A DNA stretch of 64,000 bases from Candidatus Nomurabacteria bacterium (GTDB lineage Bacteria; Patescibacteriota; Minisyncoccia; Phycocordibacterales; UBA9973). Each line of letters begins with the position of its first letter. Position 1 is the first letter of the stretch. Below are positions 19,733 through 55,132 of this stretch, piece by piece. The DNA lies in the NCBI GenBank assembly GCA_023898605.1, contig CP060230.1, positions 321,304-385,303 of the forward strand, given 5' to 3'. The position numbers and the translations under genes are program-made. Below the pieces are notes generated by a model, which saw only the letters and a program-made list of their open reading frames with translations, had not been told where the DNA came from and did no database searches.

Positions 19733-19819
19733 GGAGACGTGGCTGAGTGGTCGAAAGCGCCTCACTGCTAACGAGGTGTCCCGTCAAAAGGACCGTGGGT
19801 TCGAATCCCACCGTCTCCG
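19733..19819 (+). tRNA. tRNA-Ser (anticodon GCT), long variable arm
   Basis: Acceptor GGAGACG/CGTCTCC, anticodon loop CTGCTAA, variable arm TGTCCCGTCAAAAGGACCGT, T-arm GGGTTCGAATCCC. Confidence 0.8.
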
Positions 19820-19849
19820 CAATAAATCTGACCGCACCCCGCCACAATT

Positions 19850-47545: not shown

Positions 47546-48271
47546 TTATGATCCCCTTTCTTCTTCTGGTACAAGGTACAAGATTTTGACTCCGTTTTCC
47601 TTTGAATACTCAAAAGCAAATGTTGCTTTTTCTCTTATATGTCCATCTTCGTATATAACAGTTCCCACTCTTTCTCTTGGGTCTACAAATGTAGAAACGG
47701 TATAAAACTCTCCTCCCAAAACTCCACTTCCAGCAAGTTCACCTATGTTTTCTTGTATATACTCTGCAACATCTGTTTTTGTATCCAGATCAAAACAATC
47801 TATAGAGTCTAATGACATAGAGTAAGATAGAGTTTCTGGACTTGAATAGAAGTATTCTCCATTTCTTTCTTCCATTTCACCAGCAGCTAGTTCTATATGA
47901 TCATAATACATCTTCATATATAATTCTTCGTCCACATTCATACCCTCGGCAGAAGAGCTCCATACTGATTTTATAAAATCATACGAAGTCGCATCAGAAA
48001 GTGTTCCGCTTATGGATCCCGTTTTTTTATCTTTCTCAGACGGCAAGAAGCTAACTTCTCCAGATATATCACCTTCGTCGTTTGTCAGATCTACTATATA
48101 CCTATCGTACAAATCACCACTCTGTGTTTCGTTCAAGAAACAGTATCTTTGTGGCTGTGGTTTTTCTACAACCTCACTTTGTGGTTCTGGTTTTAGTACA
48201 AAAAACACAACAACCAAAAACGCGATTGCTAAAAATCCTAGAAATATATTGAGTGTTTTTTTATTTTCCAT
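47546..48271 (-). CDS. Hypothetical membrane-anchored or secreted protein
   Basis: 241 aa with an N-terminal anchor LNIFLGFLAIAFLVVVFFVL. Confidence 0.4.
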   Translation of the reverse strand: MENKKTLNIFLGFLAIAFLVVVFFVLKPEPQSEVVEKPQPQRYCFLNETQSGDLYDRYIVDLTNDEGDISGEVSFLPSEKDKKTGSISGTLSDATSYDFIKSVWSSSAEGMNVDEELYMKMYYDHIELAAGEMEERNGEYFYSSPETLSYSMSLDSIDCFDLDTKTDVAEYIQENIGELAGSGVLGGEFYTVSTFVDPRERVGTVIYEDGHIREKATFAFEYSKENGVKILYLVPEEERGS

Positions 48272-48275
48272 AATA

Positions 48276-48845
48276 TTATATAAGCCCTAGAGCTCTAGCT
48301 ACGAAGCTTGCAAAAGGATCAACATCGACTCCGTAAACTATTATACCACCCAATGCTCCTGTTATAGAAACTAAAATAAGTCCTCCTATAGAAAGAAGGG
48401 TCATCAATACACTGTTTGTACCTATAAAAAGTAGTGCTTTATAAACAAAAGAAAATATTTTTTTCAAAAAAGAAAGTCTTCTTTCTAAAAATCCAAATAT
48501 TTGATTCTTGAGCGCGATTCTTTTTTCTATAAAAAGAACTATATATATCACCAAAATAAAAACGAAGAAGCTTGCTGTAAACTCAGCATAATGTTCGTGG
48601 ACTTTTATAAACTCTATCTTATTTTGCAAATCATCAACTGCGTTTATAGCACTCTCGCCACTCATAAGAGCAAGTCTTGTTCCCAAAAAACCAATCAAAA
48701 GTAAAAATGATTTTATATAAAACCAAGTATTCGAGAATTTTAATCTTCTAATTGTGAAAATCTCTGCTAATGCATATATGGTCAAAAATGCTATAGGCAA
48801 GTGGACCAAAATAGGATGTGTATTCATAACGAAAAGATTATACAC
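48276..48845 (-). CDS. Integral membrane protein
   Basis: 189 aa with 5 predicted TM helices. Confidence 0.45.
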   Translation of the reverse strand: MYNLFVMNTHPILVHLPIAFLTIYALAEIFTIRRLKFSNTWFYIKSFLLLIGFLGTRLALMSGESAINAVDDLQNKIEFIKVHEHYAEFTASFFVFILVIYIVLFIEKRIALKNQIFGFLERRLSFLKKIFSFVYKALLFIGTNSVLMTLLSIGGLILVSITGALGGIIVYGVDVDPFASFVARALGLI

Positions 48846-48933
48846 CCAAAATACTAGTTTGGCGAAGTGCGGAGACGGAGGGATAGTTCGACAGGCTCAC
48901 TATTAAAAAGTTCCGATCTCACACCGTCAACAA

Positions 48934-49206
48934 CTAAGTGCTTTTACTTAGTTGAATTAATAAATCTTTATTTCCATCTATCAACGCTTTCTTTTTTGCT
49001 TTTGACCACCCTTTGATTTGTTTTTCTCTTTTTTCAGCCAGATTTCTAGTGTGTAGATTTTCTGTATACACTAGCTCTACTGAGTTAAATTTACTCGTAA
49101 ATTTTGACTGCTTGTTTTTATGCTGAAAAAATCTCCGTTCAAGATTGTCTGTCATTCCTGTATAATACATTTCTTGGTTGCAAAAAAGTATATATACAAA
49201 CCACAT
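48934..49206 (-). CDS. Small GIY-YIG nuclease-domain protein (third paralog in the window)
   Basis: MWFVYILFCNQEMYYTGMTDNLERRFFQHKNK...; 90 aa. Located between junction 1 and junction 2 of the island. Confidence 0.65.
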   Translation of the reverse strand: MWFVYILFCNQEMYYTGMTDNLERRFFQHKNKQSKFTSKFNSVELVYTENLHTRNLAEKREKQIKGWSKAKKKALIDGNKDLLIQLSKST

Positions 49207-49242
49207 GAATCAATTATACGCAAAGCACTGAGCTTGTCGAAG

Positions 49243-49445
49243 TGCGGTGTTTGTTGGACAAAGTTCGAAGCTATTTCGAGCAAAATCCAAACGATTAAAA
49301 CTAATAAAATGGACTCGGCAGGGCGAAACAATTTGTCTGGGGGAATGGATTCGCCCTGCCTCGGCTGATTTCCCGCCCGCAGGAGGGGTCTGGGGAGGAA
49401 TGCGGGCGGGTTTCGGACTGGGGTTTTTCGGAAATTCAGCGGCTA
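49243..49445 (+). repeat. 203-bp inverted-repeat arm of the island (member of the 200-nt repeat family)
   Basis: Near-identical reverse complement of 52017-52219. Begins with the TGCGG core at 49243-49247 and contains the GC-rich hairpin CCCGCCCGCA...TGCGGGCGGG. Confidence 0.85.
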
Positions 49446-50837
49446 TGATTTTGGTATTGCTGGAAAATCAACAATTTTCCCAACACTATTTTTTATAACA
49501 TCTCGGCAACTTTTTGCAAAAACTTTATTGTTTGATTCTTTTATATATTTTGCAACACGAAAAAGGTCAGTTGTTCTTACCAAAGCACAATTTGAAGATT
49601 TTGCTGTAGTTATACATTTGGTTGTAAACTGTTCTGCTCGCTCGGATGGTTTTGTGAGTCGAAAGCCATTTCCAAATAGAATACCGACCGCAGGGTTTTC
49701 CACTTCATCTCTTTGCAAGTCTTCCTGAATATTTACTGCAAGTTGTCTAAACTTATCAATATTGACTGCGGAAGTGTCTTTACCCTCTGCTTCGCCGATA
49801 AAACGATCTCCCTCTGGCGAGGTGATAACATGATCTAATTCAAGATTTCCGTCATTATAATTTTCTGCCTTATAACCTAAAATCTCTAAGGCGGTAGTGA
49901 TTGCAGTTTCAAGCACTTTTCCTTTTTCAAATAGTAAATCTCTTAACTTAATTTCTTCATCAATCTTTGTTAGTAGCTCATTCTTTTGTAAAATCAGTTT
50001 CTCAATTTCTTTTGTTTTCTTTTCAACTTCATTTTTTAAAATCTGCTCTTGTGCTAATTGGTAATCCGTTTCATTCGTCCAATCTGGTGGCGGGGTTTTA
50101 TCTCCTCCTTTACGGAGAGCTTTATCAATATCAACAAGCGCCTTAACTAAAGATTTTCCAAATTGCGTTGCTTCTTTTGTCCAATATTCTTTTTTATCCT
50201 TGCCTTTAATTTCAGTAAACTTTTTCTCATCATAATTTATGTAGGGCAAAACAATTATGTTTCCATTTTTGACTTTATAAATTGCACCTAAAATCTTTGT
50301 TTTATCCTTGCCCGTAAAAAGAACCTGTGCACCTGTTGCGTTTTCTATATAAAGCTGGTACTCCAAACTTTTCTTGAATTTTTCATTAAAATCACTAAAC
50401 ACTGTATTTCCCGAAAATTCAACATGTTTTCCAGAGGCGGAAGTTAATGAGCCAATATTGATCGGCAAAAAAGCGTAGTTGTTATACATTTCCGTATGAA
50501 AAGTATTTTGCCCCTTTCTTTCCGATGAAACGCTACTGGCAAGCTGATATTCTTCTTTATTCGTTAAAAGAATAAAAACATTTTTCCCCGCATTTAAATA
50601 ATCTTCAATCTCTTTTCTTAAACGTGATATTTTTTGTTTGTAAGCTTGCGAAGCCGAAACATTGTAGCAACCTCCATCGCTTGTAGTGAAGCTAACCCAA
50701 TCTCCTCTTGGCACTAATGAATCAGGCGAAATCAATAGAATATCAGCATCCATCAAAGACTTACCATCGTAAAAATCAACGAGATTTGTGTCGAATGTTG
50801 GTATCGTATATCCAATTGTGAATATCTGATTTTCCAT
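49443..50837 (-). CDS. Hypothetical island cargo protein: unknown N-terminal domain, coiled-coil and possible PD-(D/E)xK-like C-terminus
   Basis: Start set at MENQIFTIGY (ATG 50835-50837), two nucleotides after the EamA stop. The central region is K/E-rich and helical. The C-terminus ...ELDHVITSPEGDRFIGEAEGKD... fits a D...ExK pattern. Confidence 0.45.
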   Translation of the reverse strand: MENQIFTIGYTIPTFDTNLVDFYDGKSLMDADILLISPDSLVPRGDWVSFTTSDGGCYNVSASQAYKQKISRLRKEIEDYLNAGKNVFILLTNKEEYQLASSVSSERKGQNTFHTEMYNNYAFLPINIGSLTSASGKHVEFSGNTVFSDFNEKFKKSLEYQLYIENATGAQVLFTGKDKTKILGAIYKVKNGNIIVLPYINYDEKKFTEIKGKDKKEYWTKEATQFGKSLVKALVDIDKALRKGGDKTPPPDWTNETDYQLAQEQILKNEVEKKTKEIEKLILQKNELLTKIDEEIKLRDLLFEKGKVLETAITTALEILGYKAENYNDGNLELDHVITSPEGDRFIGEAEGKDTSAVNIDKFRQLAVNIQEDLQRDEVENPAVGILFGNGFRLTKPSERAEQFTTKCITTAKSSNCALVRTTDLFRVAKYIKESNNKVFAKSCRDVIKNSVGKIVDFPAIPKS

Positions 50838-50839
50838 AG

Positions 50840-51730
50840 CTATACCAGTAAAATATAAACACCTGCAAACATAATTACTGCCCCGATAGATTTCTTTATC
50901 AGCACAGAAGTAGAAATATCCTCTTTGATAATGTGCGGAATAAAGAGTGTTAGTAGTATGCCAATTAGTATTGCGTAAAAGGACTGAACCTGCATAACAA
51001 CAGTAACTAACCCAGCAGATGGAGCTATAGCAAGAGCTTTCTTGATACTCATTTGACCGAAAAAGTCCAAGACATTGTTCCATGAAAACCAAATGTATTT
51101 TCCTGCTCTTGCAGTTCTAATTCCTTCAATGACTTGTTTGCGTATTGACGGAATAATAAACATTGTTAGTCCTGCTAAAGCAGAACCCAAATTGTCGAGC
51201 ATAAAATAATCCCAAAATGACATTTTCGTTAGCCCGTAATCTATGAGCAAAGTCATTATTGACCACATCAAAATCGCTATCAGTATCATCCCGAAACCCT
51301 TTATGAATATGCCTTTACTTTTTTCAAACGAGACAATCGTTGCGCCAACTAGAACAATCACGAATCCCAAAAGTTCATTTGAGGATAGTGTTTGACCCAA
51401 AAAAGTAAAGGCGAGTATTACAGTAATGACAGGAATGAGTTTAAAAAGAATCACAAGGGAAGATGTATCACCTTGTTCGAGAGCTTTTCCATAGAAGCCA
51501 TAGGAATAAATAAGTATCATTCCTGTTGCGATTGATATCAAAGAAAAAATATCGAGTTCTGGTCTTCCTGCAAAAATGAATATTCCCGCAAAGAATATCC
51601 AGCTAGTTATTGTTGAAAAGAAAACGAAATCAAAAATCCCTTTTGTATATTTACCGAGAATATATTTGTCCACAAAATTAGATGAAGCCCAAAATAGTGG
51701 CGCGAGTAGTGAGAGAAAAATCCAGCTCAT
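50840..51730 (-). CDS. EamA/DMT-family transporter
   Basis: 296 aa with 10 TM helices and a duplicated EamA pattern. Confidence 0.7.
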   Translation of the reverse strand: MSWIFLSLLAPLFWASSNFVDKYILGKYTKGIFDFVFFSTITSWIFFAGIFIFAGRPELDIFSLISIATGMILIYSYGFYGKALEQGDTSSLVILFKLIPVITVILAFTFLGQTLSSNELLGFVIVLVGATIVSFEKSKGIFIKGFGMILIAILMWSIMTLLIDYGLTKMSFWDYFMLDNLGSALAGLTMFIIPSIRKQVIEGIRTARAGKYIWFSWNNVLDFFGQMSIKKALAIAPSAGLVTVVMQVQSFYAILIGILLTLFIPHIIKEDISTSVLIKKSIGAVIMFAGVYILLV

Positions 51731-51731
51731 A

Positions 51732-51935
51732 TTATTTAATTAGCTCCTCAATATCAACATTGAGAGCTTTGGCTATTTTACTCACCACAAAAACCGAAGG
51801 TTTTTTGATGACACCTGTTTCGACCTTTGTAAGCGTTGTATAGGGGACATCCGCTTTACGAGCAAAATCGTCTTGAGAAAGACCTAATTTTGTCCGTAGT
51901 TTCTTGATTTTCTGTCCTAGTTGGTTACTTTCCAT
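51732..51935 (-). CDS. XRE-family helix-turn-helix transcriptional regulator
   Basis: ...LGQKIKKLRTKLGLSQDDFARKADVPYTTLTKVETG...; 67 aa. Confidence 0.75.
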   Translation of the reverse strand: MESNQLGQKIKKLRTKLGLSQDDFARKADVPYTTLTKVETGVIKKPSVFVVSKIAKALNVDIEELIK

Positions 51936-52016
51936 ATATTGATAACATAATACTGTTGCTTGTTTTCGCTTGCAGTATTATAATAACAAATATGAGAGAT
52001 TTATTCAATAATTTTG

Positions 52017-52219
52017 TAGCCGCTGAATTTCCGAAAAACCCCAGTCCGAAACCCGCCCGCATTCCTCCCCAGACCCCTCCTGCGGGCGGGAAATCAGCCG
52101 AGGCAGGGCGAATCCATTCCCCCAGACAAATTGTTTCGCCCTGCCGAGTCCATTTTATTAGTTTTAATCGTTTGGATTTTGCTCGAAATAGCTTCGAACT
52201 TTGTCCAACAAACACCGCA
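52017..52219 (-). repeat. 203-bp inverted-repeat arm, the partner of 49243-49445
   Basis: Reverse complement of 49243-49445. Ends on an ACCGCA core at 52214-52219 that is shared with the next repeat. Confidence 0.85.
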
Positions 52220-52333
52220 TCAAATCGGAATTCAAATTTCCGCCCAAAATATGGTCGGCGCGAAGCGCCGTCTGTTCTGAATTCCCCCCAAAAAATCCTG
52301 AATCTGCAAGGATTCGCCACGCTCCGCGTGGCT
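52215..52333 (-). repeat. 120-bp inverted-repeat arm, the partner of 53734-53853
   Basis: Reverse complement of the sequence immediately left of the tRNA-Ser junction. Contains the hairpin GCCACGC-GGAG-CGTGGC. Confidence 0.85.
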
Positions 52334-52353
52334 CCTCGTTTGCCAATACAATT

Positions 52354-53916
52354 ATGAAAAATCAAACCAAAAAGTTTTTTATTTATACTCGCAAGTCTAC
52401 GGACGACAAAGACAGACAAGTTCGCAGTATTTCTGATCAGTTAGCAGAACTGAAAGATTTGGCGTTAAAAGAACAACTGGAAATTGTTGATGTCTTTGTC
52501 GAAAAACAGACCGCCAAAATACCAGGTCGCCCAGTATTTAACGAAATGTTGGAAAGAATGGAAAAAGGCGAAGCATCTGGTATTTTGGCGTGGCACCCCG
52601 ATAGACTTGCAAGAAACAGCGTTGATGGTGGAAAAATTATTTATCTTGTTGATACCGAGATTATTCAAGATTTGAAATTCTCAACTTTTTGGTTTGATCC
52701 GACACCGCAAGGAAAATTCATGCTCTCAATTGCTTTTTCGCAATCCAAGTATTATGTGGACAACTTATCCGAAAACATAAAGCGAGGTCATCGCAACAAA
52801 GTGAAAGATGGAATATGGCCTCAAATGGCTCCACTTGGATATGTAAATAAAAATAGAAAGATTGTTCCCGATGAGAATATTGCACCTTTAATCAAGAAAA
52901 CATTTGAGGCATATTCTTCTGGATCTTTCACTTTGCGACAACTTCGCGACAAATTTAATGAACTTGGATTGAAGCGAAAAAGCGGAAAGGAGCTTGCGGT
53001 GTCGAATTATCAAAAACTTTTGAAAAATCCTATATACACAGGGCTAATGCTTTACAATGGCGAAATCCACGAGGGTAAGCACGAACCGATTATTACAAAG
53101 AAACTTTTTGACTCCGTTCAGGAAGTGATGATGAGAAAATCTAAACCTCACTCGAAAGGTCTAAAACCATTTTTATATAGAGGATTTTTCCGTTGCGGAG
53201 AATGTGGCTGTTTTATCACTACCGAAACACAAAAGGGTCATAACTATTTGCGATGTACCAAACGGAAAAATCCTTGCTCGCAAAAATACACTCGTGAGGA
53301 AATCATCACTTCCGAAATTCAAAAAGAAATCAAAAAAGTTTCTTTGCCAGACAATTGGGCTAAATGGATGTTAGCTGAAAACGAAAAGGATAAATTGGTT
53401 GAAGCCCAATCGTCTACGCTTTTTGCGGATTCAACAAAAGCCGATATTTCTCTTTTGGATTCCAAGATTGAGAAGCTGATGAACGCTTACCTAGAGAACG
53501 CACTTTCACTAGACGAATATCGAGATATGAAAAACAAACTTGTGAACGAAAAACAGCTTCTCAAAGAGAAATTATCAGCTTTTGAGCAAAAAGCGAATAA
53601 TCGGTTCGAACTTACCGAAAAGTTTTTGAAATACAATATAGAATTGGCAAACGAGGGAATAAATGAAGAGAAACTTCATTTATTCAAAAAAGTCGGTTCG
53701 AACTTTATTATTGAAGCTCGAACCGTACTTTTTGAGCCACGCGGAGCGTGGCGAATCCTTGCAGATTCAGGATTTTTTGGGGGGAATTCAGAACAGACGG
53801 CGCTTCGCGCCGACCATATTTTGGGCGGAAATTTGAATTCCGATTTGATGCGGAGACGGAGGGATTCGAACCCTCGAAGGCTTTCACCTTGCCACCTTTC
53901 CAAGATGGTGCACTAG
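52354..53916 (+). CDS. Large serine recombinase (resolvase/invertase N-terminal domain, recombinase domain, zinc ribbon and coiled-coil)
   Basis: Start set at MKNQTKKFFIYTRKSTDDKDRQ... (ATG 52354). ...ILAWHPDRLARN... is the resolvase catalytic domain; CGECGCF...C is the zinc ribbon. The last roughly 60 codons run through the right 120-bp repeat and into the tRNA, so the true C-terminus is uncertain. Confidence 0.75.
   Translation: MKNQTKKFFIYTRKSTDDKDRQVRSISDQLAELKDLALKEQLEIVDVFVEKQTAKIPGRPVFNEMLERMEKGEASGILAWHPDRLARNSVDGGKIIYLVDTEIIQDLKFSTFWFDPTPQGKFMLSIAFSQSKYYVDNLSENIKRGHRNKVKDGIWPQMAPLGYVNKNRKIVPDENIAPLIKKTFEAYSSGSFTLRQLRDKFNELGLKRKSGKELAVSNYQKLLKNPIYTGLMLYNGEIHEGKHEPIITKKLFDSVQEVMMRKSKPHSKGLKPFLYRGFFRCGECGCFITTETQKGHNYLRCTKRKNPCSQKYTREEIITSEIQKEIKKVSLPDNWAKWMLAENEKDKLVEAQSSTLFADSTKADISLLDSKIEKLMNAYLENALSLDEYRDMKNKLVNEKQLLKEKLSAFEQKANNRFELTEKFLKYNIELANEGINEEKLHLFKKVGSNFIIEARTVLFEPRGAWRILADSGFFGGNSEQTALRADHILGGNLNSDLMRRRRDSNPRRLSPCHLSKMVH
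53734..53853 (+). repeat. 120-bp inverted-repeat arm abutting tRNA-Ser(GGA)
   Basis: See 52215-52333. Confidence 0.85.
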
Positions 53917-53935
53917 ACCGCTATGCGACGTCTCC
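53851..53935 (-). tRNA. tRNA-Ser (anticodon GGA), long variable arm
   Basis: Minus strand: acceptor GGAGACG/CGTCTCC, D-arm GCATAGCGGTCTAGTGC, anticodon stem-loop CCATC-TTGGAAA-GGTGG, variable arm, T-arm GAGGGTTCGAATCCCTC. Confidence 0.8.
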
Positions 53936-54110
53936 TAGTCCTGTCCCGAAGGACAGGACAGGCCAATTCTACCCAAAAGGTAGAAAAAACCCGGTATTCC
54001 CTACTATAAAATTTCGAAAATACCAATTTATACCCCACACATAAAAATATGATGGGGTAAAAAAGAACATTCGCACGATACTATACTAGAGTTCTAAATT
54101 ATTTGCAAAA

Positions 54111-54986
54111 TCACTTTCCTAGAAGTGCTTTTATCCTCGCCTCTACTGGTGGATGTGTTGCAAACAAACCTTTTATTTTTGATCCACCAAAAGGATTTGC
54201 GATAAACATATGAGCTGTTGCTTTGTGTGTGACCTTCATGGGACTACTATGCTGACTTATCTTCTGAAGTGCGTTTGCCAAACCTTCTGGATATCTGGTA
54301 AGCAACGCTCCAGATGCATCAGCAAGAAATTCTCTTTTTCTAGATATCGCTAATTGGACTAAAGTAGCAAATATAGGAGCAAGTATAGCTAGTACTATAC
54401 CGATCAGTACTAAGATGTTGCCCTTGCTGTTTCTATCACTTCCACCTCCATATATACGTGACCTTAAAAAAGCATCGGCTATAAGAGAGATAAATCCAGC
54501 CAGTACTACAGCCACAGTGGAAACCAAAATATCTTTGTTACCTATGTGAGAGAGTTCATGAGCAGCCACCCCTTCGAGTTCACTTCTGTCTAAAATAGAA
54601 AGTATTCCTGTAGTAAAAGCTATAGCAGCATGCTCTTTGTTTCTACCAGTAGCAAAAGCGTTGGGAACTGGGTCGTCGATGATGTATATTTTTGGTTTTG
54701 GTAAACCAGCTGTTATTGCTAGATTCTCTATAATATTATGCAGATCACGATACTGAACTTCGTCTGCCAGTCTAGCTCCAGAAACTCTAAGAGCTATGTT
54801 TGCACTATTCCAATATGAAAAAATATTCATAAATAAAGCAAAGATAAAAAATATATACAGTATAGAAGGGTCACCATATATTTGGGAAAAGACAAAACCG
54901 ATAGCTACCACAAGCACAAAAAAAGTACTCATGAGTAGCCATGTCTTTCTTATGTTTTTATCTTGTTGTGTATAGAGTGTGGCCAT
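54111..54986 (-). CDS. htpX: Zinc metalloprotease HtpX (M48 family)
   Basis: Start moved to the internal MATLYTQQD.... Contains HELSHIGNKD (HExxH) and 4 TM helices. Confidence 0.75.
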   Translation of the reverse strand: MATLYTQQDKNIRKTWLLMSTFFVLVVAIGFVFSQIYGDPSILYIFFIFALFMNIFSYWNSANIALRVSGARLADEVQYRDLHNIIENLAITAGLPKPKIYIIDDPVPNAFATGRNKEHAAIAFTTGILSILDRSELEGVAAHELSHIGNKDILVSTVAVVLAGFISLIADAFLRSRIYGGGSDRNSKGNILVLIGIVLAILAPIFATLVQLAISRKREFLADASGALLTRYPEGLANALQKISQHSSPMKVTHKATAHMFIANPFGGSKIKGLFATHPPVEARIKALLGK

Positions 54987-55132
54987 AGTATTATTCAAAA
55001 ATTTCTGTCCCGACAGATGGTAACTCCAAATCCGGTATATCCTTAGCAGCTTTGTTAATAGAATATGCAAAAAACACGAGTACAAAAAGTGATACAACTA
55101 TTAAAACATTCGTTAACCAATTCATGTATGTT

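Follow-up and report, generated by a model that had tools for sequence, protein, structure and literature searches.

The 64,000-nt stretch of a Candidatus Nomurabacteria bacterium genome analysed here (contig CP060230.1, positions 321,304 to 385,303; below, the window) contains, at 49243-53853, a small integrative element in complete, integrated form, one of a conserved family found in Patescibacteria. In our preferred reading, to which we assign a probability of about 0.6, the element is inserted at tRNA-Ser genes by its own large serine recombinase (LSR) through exchange between an element site (attP) and a host site (attB), crossover takes place within the tetranucleotide GCGG, and a conserved layout with two adjoining pairs of inverted repeats (IRs) leaves the recombinase segment invertible. 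This family of mobile elements, widespread in the Patescibacteria (bacteria of the candidate phyla radiation, CPR), has apparently not been described before: full-text literature on Patescibacteria/CPR, serine recombinases, tRNA-Ser, inverted repeats and an attP located within the integrase gene yielded no account of the element.

A first-pass annotation had recognised by eye four junctions with a common TGCGG core (J1 to J4, from left to right; Table 1), at which two kinds of left arm and two kinds of right arm appeared to be combined as an LSR predicts, and had noted IRs around both the cargo genes and the recombinase gene. When the junction similarities were re-aligned by program they held exactly, over 203 nt and 120 nt, and a repeat finder reported both pairs of arms as 100% complementary; the short shared core and the two-by-two combination of arms were likewise borne out. 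The arms of about 200 nt (R2, inverted copy R2') enclose the cargo operon and those of 120 nt (L2 and L2') the recombinase gene. The two IRs overlap by 5 nt (52215-52219), where the sequence CCGCA is the reverse complement of TGCGG. Since the next-longest IR in the surrounding 9 kb measures only 34 nt, at 71%, two such long IRs are far beyond chance. J3, between the two segments, is an exact inverted copy of the L2-GCGG-R2 sequence that joining both ends of the element would form. In tRNA-Ser(GGA), the GCGG of J4 coincides with the final two bases of the acceptor stem, the discriminator and a single trailer base. In addition, CGAAG stands directly before the core at 48863 and 49238, and a 17-nt exact direct repeat, TGCGGAGACGGAGGGAT, occurs at 48868-48884 and 53849-53865, where the second copy is the 3' end of the tRNA gene.

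The recombinase has the domain architecture of an LSR, with Pfam matches to Resolvase (E 1.4e-19), Recombinase (E 1.1e-14) and Zn_ribbon_recom (E 3.7e-07), and a YTRKST motif near its N-terminus. A PHROG integrase family matches residues 2-458 (E 1.4e-77), and matches to family profiles end at residue 458. By phmmer the protein is related to the SPbeta and A118 integrases. The nearest recombinases in annotated phage and plasmid records share at most 29% protein identity with it, and in IMG/VR we found no close relative, just one partial match of 26% identity; no exact match to the protein is on record. Homologues nevertheless number in the thousands. The best 120 are 81-96% identical, measure 494-647 aa and bear names from many Patescibacteria lineages, and across named lineages the recombinases are 76-97% identical at the protein level. 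Matches were present in 195 stretches of GTDB species genomes and in more than 528 of JGI metagenomes. From these sources we fetched 159 related loci (labelled L001 and so on), 79 from GTDB species genomes and 80 from metagenomes, and analysed them by self-comparison, profile searches for both arms and tRNA scans. In the window, tRNA genes were called by ARAGORN and Rfam and domains by Pfam, with NCBIfam, PHROGs and PADLOC as further sources.

The layout of the window recurs at more than 100 independent loci from many Patescibacteria lineages, as X-GCGG-(R2 arm, cargo, R2' arm)-CCGC-(L2' arm, recombinase, L2 arm)-GCGG-tRNA-Ser, where X is the host flank. A tRNA whose 3' end overlaps the outer end of L2 was called downstream of the recombinase gene in 116 loci. 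All but one are tRNA-Ser (anticodon GGA in 36, GCT in 29, CGA in 25, TGA in 18 and 'act' in 7); the other is tRNA-Pro. Several further loci have truncated tRNA ends, and in L067 the element sits at a tRNA-Asp with the same 3' sequence. Upstream of the recombinase, an inverted R2 arm abuts an inverted L2 arm, also in 116 loci. A complete cargo module lies between two R2 arms in 53 loci, and 52 of these modules span 1.8-6.9 kb. In L050 (9804-9860) the corresponding stretch is a cargo-less 57 nt made up of GCGG, 24 nt of R2, ATAA, 24 nt of R2' and CCGC, with L2' and the recombinase directly behind it; 24 nt is the length expected of a half-site. Even in L070 and L075, where the recombinases are only 65-72% identical, the gene is flanked by IRs.

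This recurrence bears on the suggestion of the first-pass annotation that the locus had been captured in a rearranged state. Comparison with the tRNA-Ser loci of related genomes, which it had proposed, instead finds the same layout beside tRNA-Ser at more than 100 loci of different lineages, so that the arrangement is canonical. A rearrangement or relic confined to this locus, or a chimera made by the assembly of inverted repeats, is hardly credible. Abutting perfect long IRs can come from foldback artefacts or a recent rearrangement, and the window shows a single arrangement; however, the same architecture, core and homologous arms occur in contigs from many studies, assemblers and lineages, some of them long-read, judging by their names only (L065, L076), and the recombinase genes are intact and under purifying selection. 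With more than 100 recurrences, we regard an artefact or local relic as ruled out. What the repeats do disturb is assembly. Many contigs from various studies end 20-260 nt into the R2' arm (for example L001, L003, L004, L006, L007, L009, L011, L020, L025, L029, L038 and L045), because a perfect repeat of about 200 nt breaks short-read assembly.

When the junctions were aligned on the core, GCGG was present at 94 of 94 J4 junctions (L2-core-tRNA), 113 of 113 J3 junctions (L2-core-R2) and 50 of 53 J2 junctions (X-core-R2), and the flank X had zero information content. Across the family, an overlap of exactly 4 nt between the IRs is the commonest. In many loci the identity common to the site types is just these 4 nt, GCGG, which is compatible with a 2-bp crossover dinucleotide. 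Exchange probably occurs within GCGG, and the constant polarity of the junctions across the family makes the non-palindromic GG the candidate crossover dinucleotide; a palindromic one (CG or GC) was rejected for the same reason. The idea that two modules each excise alone was also discarded, since the cores that bound each module are inverted and the cores predicted for that case, CCGG and GCGC, are absent from all collected junctions.

The right half-sites allow the sites to be assigned. The first ~40 nt of R2 are highly conserved (TGTTTGTTGGACAAAGTTCGAAacTATTTCGAGCAAAATC); the right half-site of the element reads TGTTTGTTGGACAAAGTTCGAA and that of the tRNA AGnnnnnGGGATTCGAAC. The motif TTCGAA starts at +17 from the core in 113 of 113 R2 arms and at +12 in 89 of 94 tRNA arms. 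In LSR sites the DBD2 motif lies 4-5 bp nearer the centre in attB than in attP (PMC11722253). Since TTCGAA is 5 nt closer to the core in the tRNA, R2 reads as a P-type half-site and the tRNA 3' end as a B-type half-site, and the right half-sites show the outer-motif spacing of an LSR attP/attB pair. In the window the P-type half-site, nt 1-24 after the core in the distal R2 arm, is TGTTTGTTGGACAAAGTTCGAAGC, and the B-type half-site at the 3' end of tRNA-Ser(GGA) is AGACGGAGGGATTCGAAC. The invariance of GCGG and the 5-nt shift, both family-wide, bear out the earlier designation of J2 as attL, J4 as attR and J3 as an inverted attP. The left half-sites do not follow the spacing rule cleanly: in L2, which is more variable, TCGGAA-like motifs recur near +6, +13 and +19, and X shows no conservation.

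The open reading frame (ORF) of the recombinase spans its own attachment site, without a stop before the core. In the window it passes residue 460 (nt 53733), L2, the core and 63 nt of antisense tRNA before its stop at 53914-53916. In 122 of 123 loci it is open past L2 and the core and stops 1-478 nt beyond the core, in whatever follows. Among 63 distinct variants in which L2, core and R2 run on without a break, 61 reach a stop after 15-19 codons, and the tail peptide encoded by R2, C(L/V)L(D/N)(K/E)VR.(Y/F)F..NP.D, is conserved, its substitutions being conservative; the native recombinase tail ends ...WRCLLDKVRSYFEQNPND. In the distal R2 arm of the window, nt 1-51 encode this tail, CLLDKVRSYFEQNPND, followed by a stop, and the remainder consists of GC-rich hairpins. 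The ratio of nonsynonymous to synonymous polymorphism (pN/pS) is 0.16 in the conserved body of the recombinase, indicating strong purifying selection. In the R2-encoded tail it is 0.46 in frame, compared with 0.71 and 1.56 in the other two frames; the evidence is modest, since the half-site is made of these very nucleotides. Of the tails of 60 database homologues, five are encoded by R2, three are translated from an alternative arm that we call R3 (see below), and most others are antisense to tRNA. L2-core-R2 thus appears to be the 3' end native to the transcription unit of the recombinase; integration severs it, and J3 is a spare, inverted copy of it.

Two side observations concern these sequences. 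In the J3 copy of the window, a candidate 60-aa ORF (52164-52346, minus strand, TTG start) repeats the C-terminal tail of the recombinase, as MANE followed by EPRGAW...MRCLLDKVRSYFEQNPND. In about 5% of loci, a semi-conserved sequence of ~130 nt, R3 (GACACTCGGGTTAAGT...AAGG.ATTTTAGCAT...AATGAGACAAATGAGACA), replaces tRNA or R2 after L2-GGCGG. It lies downstream of the recombinase in L060 (1600), L064 (11487), L066 (1818), L080 (1752), L081 (3950), L136 (1759) and L150 (1795) and upstream of it in L010 (797), and matches neither a tRNA nor, in a run on four R3 loci, an Rfam family.

The two copies of each arm are kept alike. Within an element the L2 pair is 100% identical in 62 of 97 loci and at least 98% identical in 83 of 97, and the R2 pair is at least 98% identical in 34 of 37 loci, whereas between elements the arms differ by 5-20%; the copies therefore evolve in concert. 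Beyond about nt 55 the sequence of R2 is not conserved between subfamilies, yet it always folds into long GC-rich hairpins, with folding energies between -62 and -96 kcal/mol over 226 nt. In L2, the hairpin GGCGC...GCGCC has undergone compensatory changes at three pairs (GC 53/CG 10; CG 54/GC 9; GC 33/AU 20/CG 9) and scores as terminator-like.

Such features would also be expected if the arms acted in transcription, with R2 as a terminator or insulator for recombinase and cargo transcripts, a 120-bp panhandle of L2 and L2' silencing read-through into the recombinase, and no arm serving as a recombination substrate. Consistent with this, R2 stands at the 3' end of the cargo operon and, as part of attP, at that of the recombinase gene. 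This explanation does not account for the exact end of the arms at the termini of the element or for their inclusion of the core and both half-sites, and a terminator between the divergent XRE and recombinase genes has no obvious purpose. In addition, RNAalifold gave no convincing consensus for the whole L2-core-R2 block, just one short covarying hairpin, and Rfam, run over 48000-55000 at a permissive threshold, found only the tRNA and nothing in the arms. We consider it improbable that the arms act mainly in transcription.

Recombinase genes in the opposite orientation do occur. In five loci (L023, L055, L071, L074 and L144) the tRNA lies upstream of, and co-directional with, the recombinase gene. 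L144 has the order tRNA-Ser, L2', recombinase, L2-GCGG-R2, which is the whole predicted flipped form, and since its L2 arms are only 81% identical its orientation cannot be attributed to assembly ambiguity. These few loci fit the reading of the segment as an invertible switch, which we consider plausible on the strength of such comparisons. A resident switch of the Hin/Gin type, controlling host or cargo expression and not mobile, is a different matter. Although the recombinase lies inside its own IR-bounded segment and both segment orientations occur, the unit is found at four tRNA-Ser isoacceptors, once at tRNA-Asp and once at tRNA-Pro, in many lineages and with unrelated cargo, and it forms tandem arrays, so that it is clearly mobile; moreover, its enzyme is an LSR and not a small invertase. 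We hold that explanation to be very improbable.

Arrays occur in L013, L035, L039, L049 and L061. Those of L035, L039, L049 and L061 contain two or three complete elements at one tRNA-Ser, and L035 and L039 each include a second recombinase, 77-79% identical. Because such arrays occur, L2-GCGG-tRNA can itself be a target, which fits a target in which just the tRNA half matters. A single genome can also carry several elements at separate tRNA genes (compare L084 and L093, which share a contig, and L063, 19393-21095). In L023 (9780-11584) the recombinase is flanked by two tRNA-Ser genes in inverted orientation, probably because the chromosome was inverted between two tRNA-Ser sites that were both occupied, or because the internal site reacted with a second tRNA.

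From these observations a mechanism can be proposed. For integration, attP would recombine with attB within GCGG, where tRNA-Ser has its discriminator end; this would restore the tRNA while yielding attL (J2) and attR (J4). Excision by J2 x J4 would restore X-GCGG-tRNA and release a circle in which two inverted copies of attP separate the recombinase segment from the cargo segment. More tentatively, integration would sever the native tail and the hairpin-rich 3' region from the recombinase gene, and the inverted spare copy would let the recombinase segment flip, through the action either of the recombinase on the cores or of RecA on the 120-nt arms. The flipped gene would be rejoined to an intact 3' end and would stand downstream of the tRNA gene and co-directional with it; the converging orientation (~95% of loci) would then be a parked state and the flipped one an active state. 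The conserved arms would double as homology handles for the exchange of cargo cassettes between elements.

For the internal site, the candidate roles suggested by this layout are thus an inversion switch and a circle resembling the yeast 2-micron plasmid. Taken furthest, the inverted internal attP would be a self-regulating device: the parked enzyme would bear a foreign tail, inversion would supply the native 3' end together with read-through from tRNA-Ser and so re-arm excision without a directionality factor, and the free form would be a 2-micron-like circle with two attP sites. We offer this extension tentatively, since we think it more doubtful than probable. If it were true, it would be a new and family-wide means of controlling the direction of an LSR.

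Several observations weigh against the preferred reading, in which the recombinase segment inverts and integration proceeds by attP x attB exchange. In ~95% of loci the recombinase converges on the tRNA, which would not be expected if flipping were free or if the attP copies of a circle were equivalent; this bias demands an extra assumption, either selection or a trapped state. Cargo is also biased in orientation. An XRE-like gene is present in 44 of the 53 cargo modules, and in 40 of these 44 it adjoins J3 and is transcribed divergently from the recombinase; two modules (L019 and L102) have it in the flipped position and two elsewhere. In those two flipped modules the arms are 99.5% and 100% identical and longer than typical k-mers, so that their orientation is uncertain, since a short-read assembler may choose arbitrarily at near-perfect arms. 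With regard to the tail, the 40 residues encoded by L2 have a pN/pS of 0.74, compared with 0.91 and 1.29 in the control frames, and other frames of this GC-rich arm are often open too; an open frame across L2 is therefore a weak argument for the importance of the tail, and we rejected it as strong proof of a functional tail. Matches to promoter and terminator consensus sequences were no more frequent than in shuffled sequence. As to free forms, no circular contig was detected by terminal overlap in ~160 loci, and neither an excised circle nor an empty site of the window's tRNA-Ser(GGA) was seen among the fetched contigs. Finally, in the window an intact attP at J3 coexists with an unoccupied attB-like site at tRNA-Ser(GCT), 32 kb away; because this target is still free, the J3 site or the enzyme would appear to be inactive in the present state.

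Apparent candidates for circles were set aside. Short contigs with R2 to either side of the recombinase (L083, L087) have non-identical arms and look like tandem arrays, and the start of L102 is explicable by a wrong assembly branch at the IR.

According to the main rival to the preferred reading, the arms serve as homology handles and insulate transcription, and J3 never acts as a site. In its recombinational form it posits two cooperating modules, of which R2-cargo-R2' or L2'-recombinase-L2 is swapped between a resident element and an incoming one in a double crossover that depends on RecA, for example after natural DNA uptake; gene conversion would keep the arms identical, and integration and excision would use the outer sites only. 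L013 and L019 illustrate such an exchange. Their cargo is the same apart from 1 mismatch in about 2300 nt and lies in opposite orientations, whereas their arms are 93% and their recombinase genes 85% identical; how the two cargoes are oriented relative to each other is uncertain, since the arms within these loci are nearly perfect and exceed typical k-mers in length. Divergence starts inside the R2 arms, and since the breakpoints lie there and not at the core, which itself counts against the recombinase as the agent, we interpret this pair as cassette exchange by homologous recombination. Three more pairs of loci have a common cargo and recombinase genes only 89-91% identical, and in several elements, for example L023 (89%), L019 (85%) and L144 (81%), the L2' and L2 arms belong to different subtypes. 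The unreacted internal attP beside a free tRNA-Ser(GCT) is also as this rival predicts. However, direct repeats or any conserved flank would serve homologous exchange equally well, so that the inversion of the arms and their exact end at the core are left without a reason; the two 24-nt half-sites that L050 has without cargo look like conservation of a site; and the strong orientation bias is not predicted. We judge it unlikely that homology alone explains the arms.

The positions of all features are collected in Table 1.

Table 1. Features of the element and its surroundings, in positions of the window.
Feature	Position	Strand	Remarks
tRNA-Ser(GCT), unoccupied attB-like site	19733-19823	+	GCGG-AGACGGTGGGATTCGAACC on the complement
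J1, attB-like remnant	48851-48884	.	ACTAGTTTGGCGAAG + TGCGG + AGACGGAGGGAT
GIY-YIG nuclease-family gene, 90 aa	48937-49206	-	between J1 and J2; Pfam GIY-YIG E 6.7e-16
Complete integrated element	49243-53853		~4.6 kb
203-nt IR	49243-49445 / 52017-52219		100% complementary, 2571 nt between arms; repeat finder
J2 core TGCGG (attL)	49243-49247	+	invariant GCGG 49244-49247; junction 49238-49263
R2 arm, distal copy, 203 nt	49243-49445	+	
Cargo gene, 464-aa protein, family not assigned	49446-50837	-	ORF
Cargo gene, EamA/DMT-family transporter, 296 aa	50843-51730	-	Pfam EamA E 4.6e-15
XRE-type helix-turn-helix (HTH) regulator, 67 aa	51735-51935	-	Pfam HTH_3 E 1e-16
R2' arm, proximal inverted copy, 203 nt	52017-52219	-	100% identical to the distal copy
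120-nt IR	52215-52334 / 53734-53853		100% complementary, 1399 nt between arms; repeat finder
J3 core CCGCA	52215-52219	-	with both arms, inverted attP copy L2-TGCGG-R2, 318 nt
L2' arm, upstream inverted copy, 120 nt	52215-52334	-	19 nt between its end and the recombinase ATG
Large serine recombinase ORF, 520 aa	52354-53916	+	conserved body 52354-53733, 460 aa
L2 arm, downstream copy, 120 nt	53734-53853	+	encodes EPRGAW...NSDLMR; hairpin CGGCGCTTCGCGCCG
J4 core TGCGG (attR)	53849-53853	+	invariant GCGG 53850-53853; junction 53840-53865
tRNA-Ser(GGA), intact	53850-53935	-	ARAGORN; Rfam tRNA 53.2 bits

Pfam agrees with the gene content first assigned to the element, namely a serine recombinase, an EamA transporter, an XRE regulator and a 464-aa protein, the last of which has no match in Pfam, NCBIfam, PHROGs or PADLOC. 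The XRE gene, which is semi-conserved in the family, is the first of the cargo operon and is divergent from the recombinase gene, with a promoter-like site at 52008-51980.

J1 had been taken for a true attB but turned out to be part of a partial duplicate of ~33 nt that flanks the GIY-YIG gene, and no feature of the family. Its left flank, ACT-AGTTTGGCGAAG, matches that of J2, ACTGAGCTTGTCGAAG, at 13 of 16 positions with one gap, so that the similarity of the two left arms noted in the first-pass annotation is in fact longer than was described. The right arm of J1 matches the tRNA over 12 nt and diverges before TTCGAA; since this part of the tRNA half-site is missing, J1 is an incomplete lookalike of attB. 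J1 and the attB rebuilt from the left flank of J2 and the right flank of J4 form an imperfect direct repeat of ~33 nt that encloses a 375-bp segment holding the GIY-YIG gene. A promoter-like site for this gene, TCGACA-16-TATAAT, lies at 49240-49213, and each of the two flank copies holds the -35 part of such a site, one for the GIY-YIG gene and the other for a DUF2231 gene. An equivalent of J1 is not part of the layout of the related loci, although no dedicated search for one was made. J1 reads as the scar of a separate, older insertion beside the tRNA, outside the recombinase element. GIY-YIG homologues also adjoin tRNA genes in L024 (11592-11864), L043 (16154-16357) and L065 (14601-14816), and small GIY-YIG genes may represent a separate class of little insertions at tRNA flanks.

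The cargo that we sampled (L032, 3621-9269; L155, 3078-5869; L149, 5503-6519; L013, 7376-8923) includes an HpaII-type restriction enzyme with a RadC-fused C5 methylase, an EcoRI-type methylase with a type II nuclease, a SIR2 and HerA pair, and a cytochrome cd1-type protein; a GmrSD-like nuclease and metabolic genes are further cargo of related loci. Since the sampled cargo includes both kinds, the family moves defence and accessory genes across the Patescibacteria.

A small element is thus common among very different Patescibacteria lineages and moves between them. Its layout is unusual for an LSR system: the recombinase gene extends across its own attachment site, conservation of the host site is confined to one half, and a spare site in inverted orientation is always retained. 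Were this spare functional, it would represent a new way of making integration reversible. The sites, GCGG, the 24-nt half-site of the element and the tRNA-Ser 3' end, are short and well defined, and together with the recombinase they might provide an integration tool for a phylum in which genetic manipulation is very hard. In practical terms, perfect IRs of ~200 nt fragment Patescibacteria genome bins, as seen in dozens of contigs, and the cargo is often left on separate small contigs. As a further observation on assembly, four contigs end inside the recombinase gene, at residues 314-328 (L071 4397, L073 10985, L074 10986 and L079 10941). They come from four different assemblies, and strain heterogeneity or a repeat between copies may be the cause.

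The known systems to which the element comes close include the large serine integrases (SPbeta SprA, A118/LI, TP901-1, Bxb1 and phiC31). It resembles them in its catalytic, recombinase and zinc-ribbon domains, in the very short identity at the core, in an outer motif 5 nt nearer the centre in the host half-site, and in integration within or beside a conserved gene. It differs in that one half of attB is wholly unconserved, in that the recombinase ORF spans attP and has no stop of its own, and in that a second, inverted attP is kept inside the integrated element. No candidate for a directionality factor was identified in the elements, whose cargo differs from one to the next.

SCCmec elements and their Ccr recombinases offer a second parallel. 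They insert at the 3' end of a conserved gene, into a target conserved only on the gene side, form tandem or composite arrays with variable cargo, and are not known to have a dedicated directionality factor. CcrB is indeed the best NCBIfam match of the window recombinase, at 101.6 bits, far below the cut-off of 900. The present target is a tRNA gene, whereas that of SCCmec is rlmH, and one recombinase takes the place of the CcrA/CcrB pair; to our knowledge, long perfect internal IRs and an internal inverted site are not features of any SCC element.

Inverted crossover sites also bound the segments of serine invertases (Salmonella Hin, Gin for the G-segment of Mu and Cin for the C-segment of P1), and the hin gene lies inside its segment. 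In the S/S' system of Mu the IRs lie within coding sequence and inversion swaps a protein C-terminus, while P1 has long IRs (0.6 kb) inside its segment. A flip of the present element would similarly swap the C-terminal tail of the recombinase and its upstream neighbour. Unlike Hin, Gin and Cin, however, the enzyme is an LSR, the tail exchanged would be the recombinase's own, and the unit is mobile and targets tRNA genes. Small invertases measure ~190 aa, with a catalytic and an HTH domain, whereas the conserved body here has 460 aa and LSR domains; a PHROG 'DNA invertase' match covers only the N-terminal 262 residues.

The yeast 2-micron plasmid is a circle in which two long IRs with recombination sites (FLP/FRT) separate two unique regions. 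The predicted excised circle would resemble it, having two IRs with sites and the recombinase in one unique region, although FLP is a tyrosine recombinase and the Patescibacteria element has no replication genes and lives integrated. In mycobacteriophages of the BPs type, which show integration-dependent immunity, attP lies inside a gene, and integration alters the C-terminus of the product and with it stability or activity. The attP of the present element lies likewise inside the 3' end of the recombinase ORF, with a predicted effect on the tail; in those phages it is the repressor that is split, the integrase is a tyrosine enzyme and no inverted spare copy is known.

Tycheposons are small elements that carry cargo, insert site-specifically at tRNA genes and occur in tandem arrays, and a minority of them use LSRs, according to the passages of their description that we consulted (bioRxiv 10.1101/2020.12.28.424599). 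The present element shares with them its small size, its tRNA target, accessory cargo and tandem arrays. In those passages they are defined by a tyrosine-integrase lineage, shared replication hallmark genes and an inward-facing integrase (bioRxiv 10.1101/2020.12.28.424599), whereas our element lacks replication genes and its recombinase faces outward, toward the tRNA. The term 'inverted repeat' occurs once in that paper, and its passages in question describe no IR architecture (bioRxiv 10.1101/2020.12.28.424599). Nor is the element a classical tRNA island, with a tyrosine integrase and a displaced tRNA 3' fragment at the far end: its recombinase is of the serine type, its own terminal repeat is just the 4-5-nt core, and the 17-nt tRNA fragment at J1 sits 375 nt outside attL. 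The element recalls the Hin/Gin segments in geometry and the 2-micron plasmid in its predicted free form but departs from both in defining features such as the type of enzyme. By its enzyme and sites it is a large serine integrase system, from which the unconserved left half of attB is a departure.

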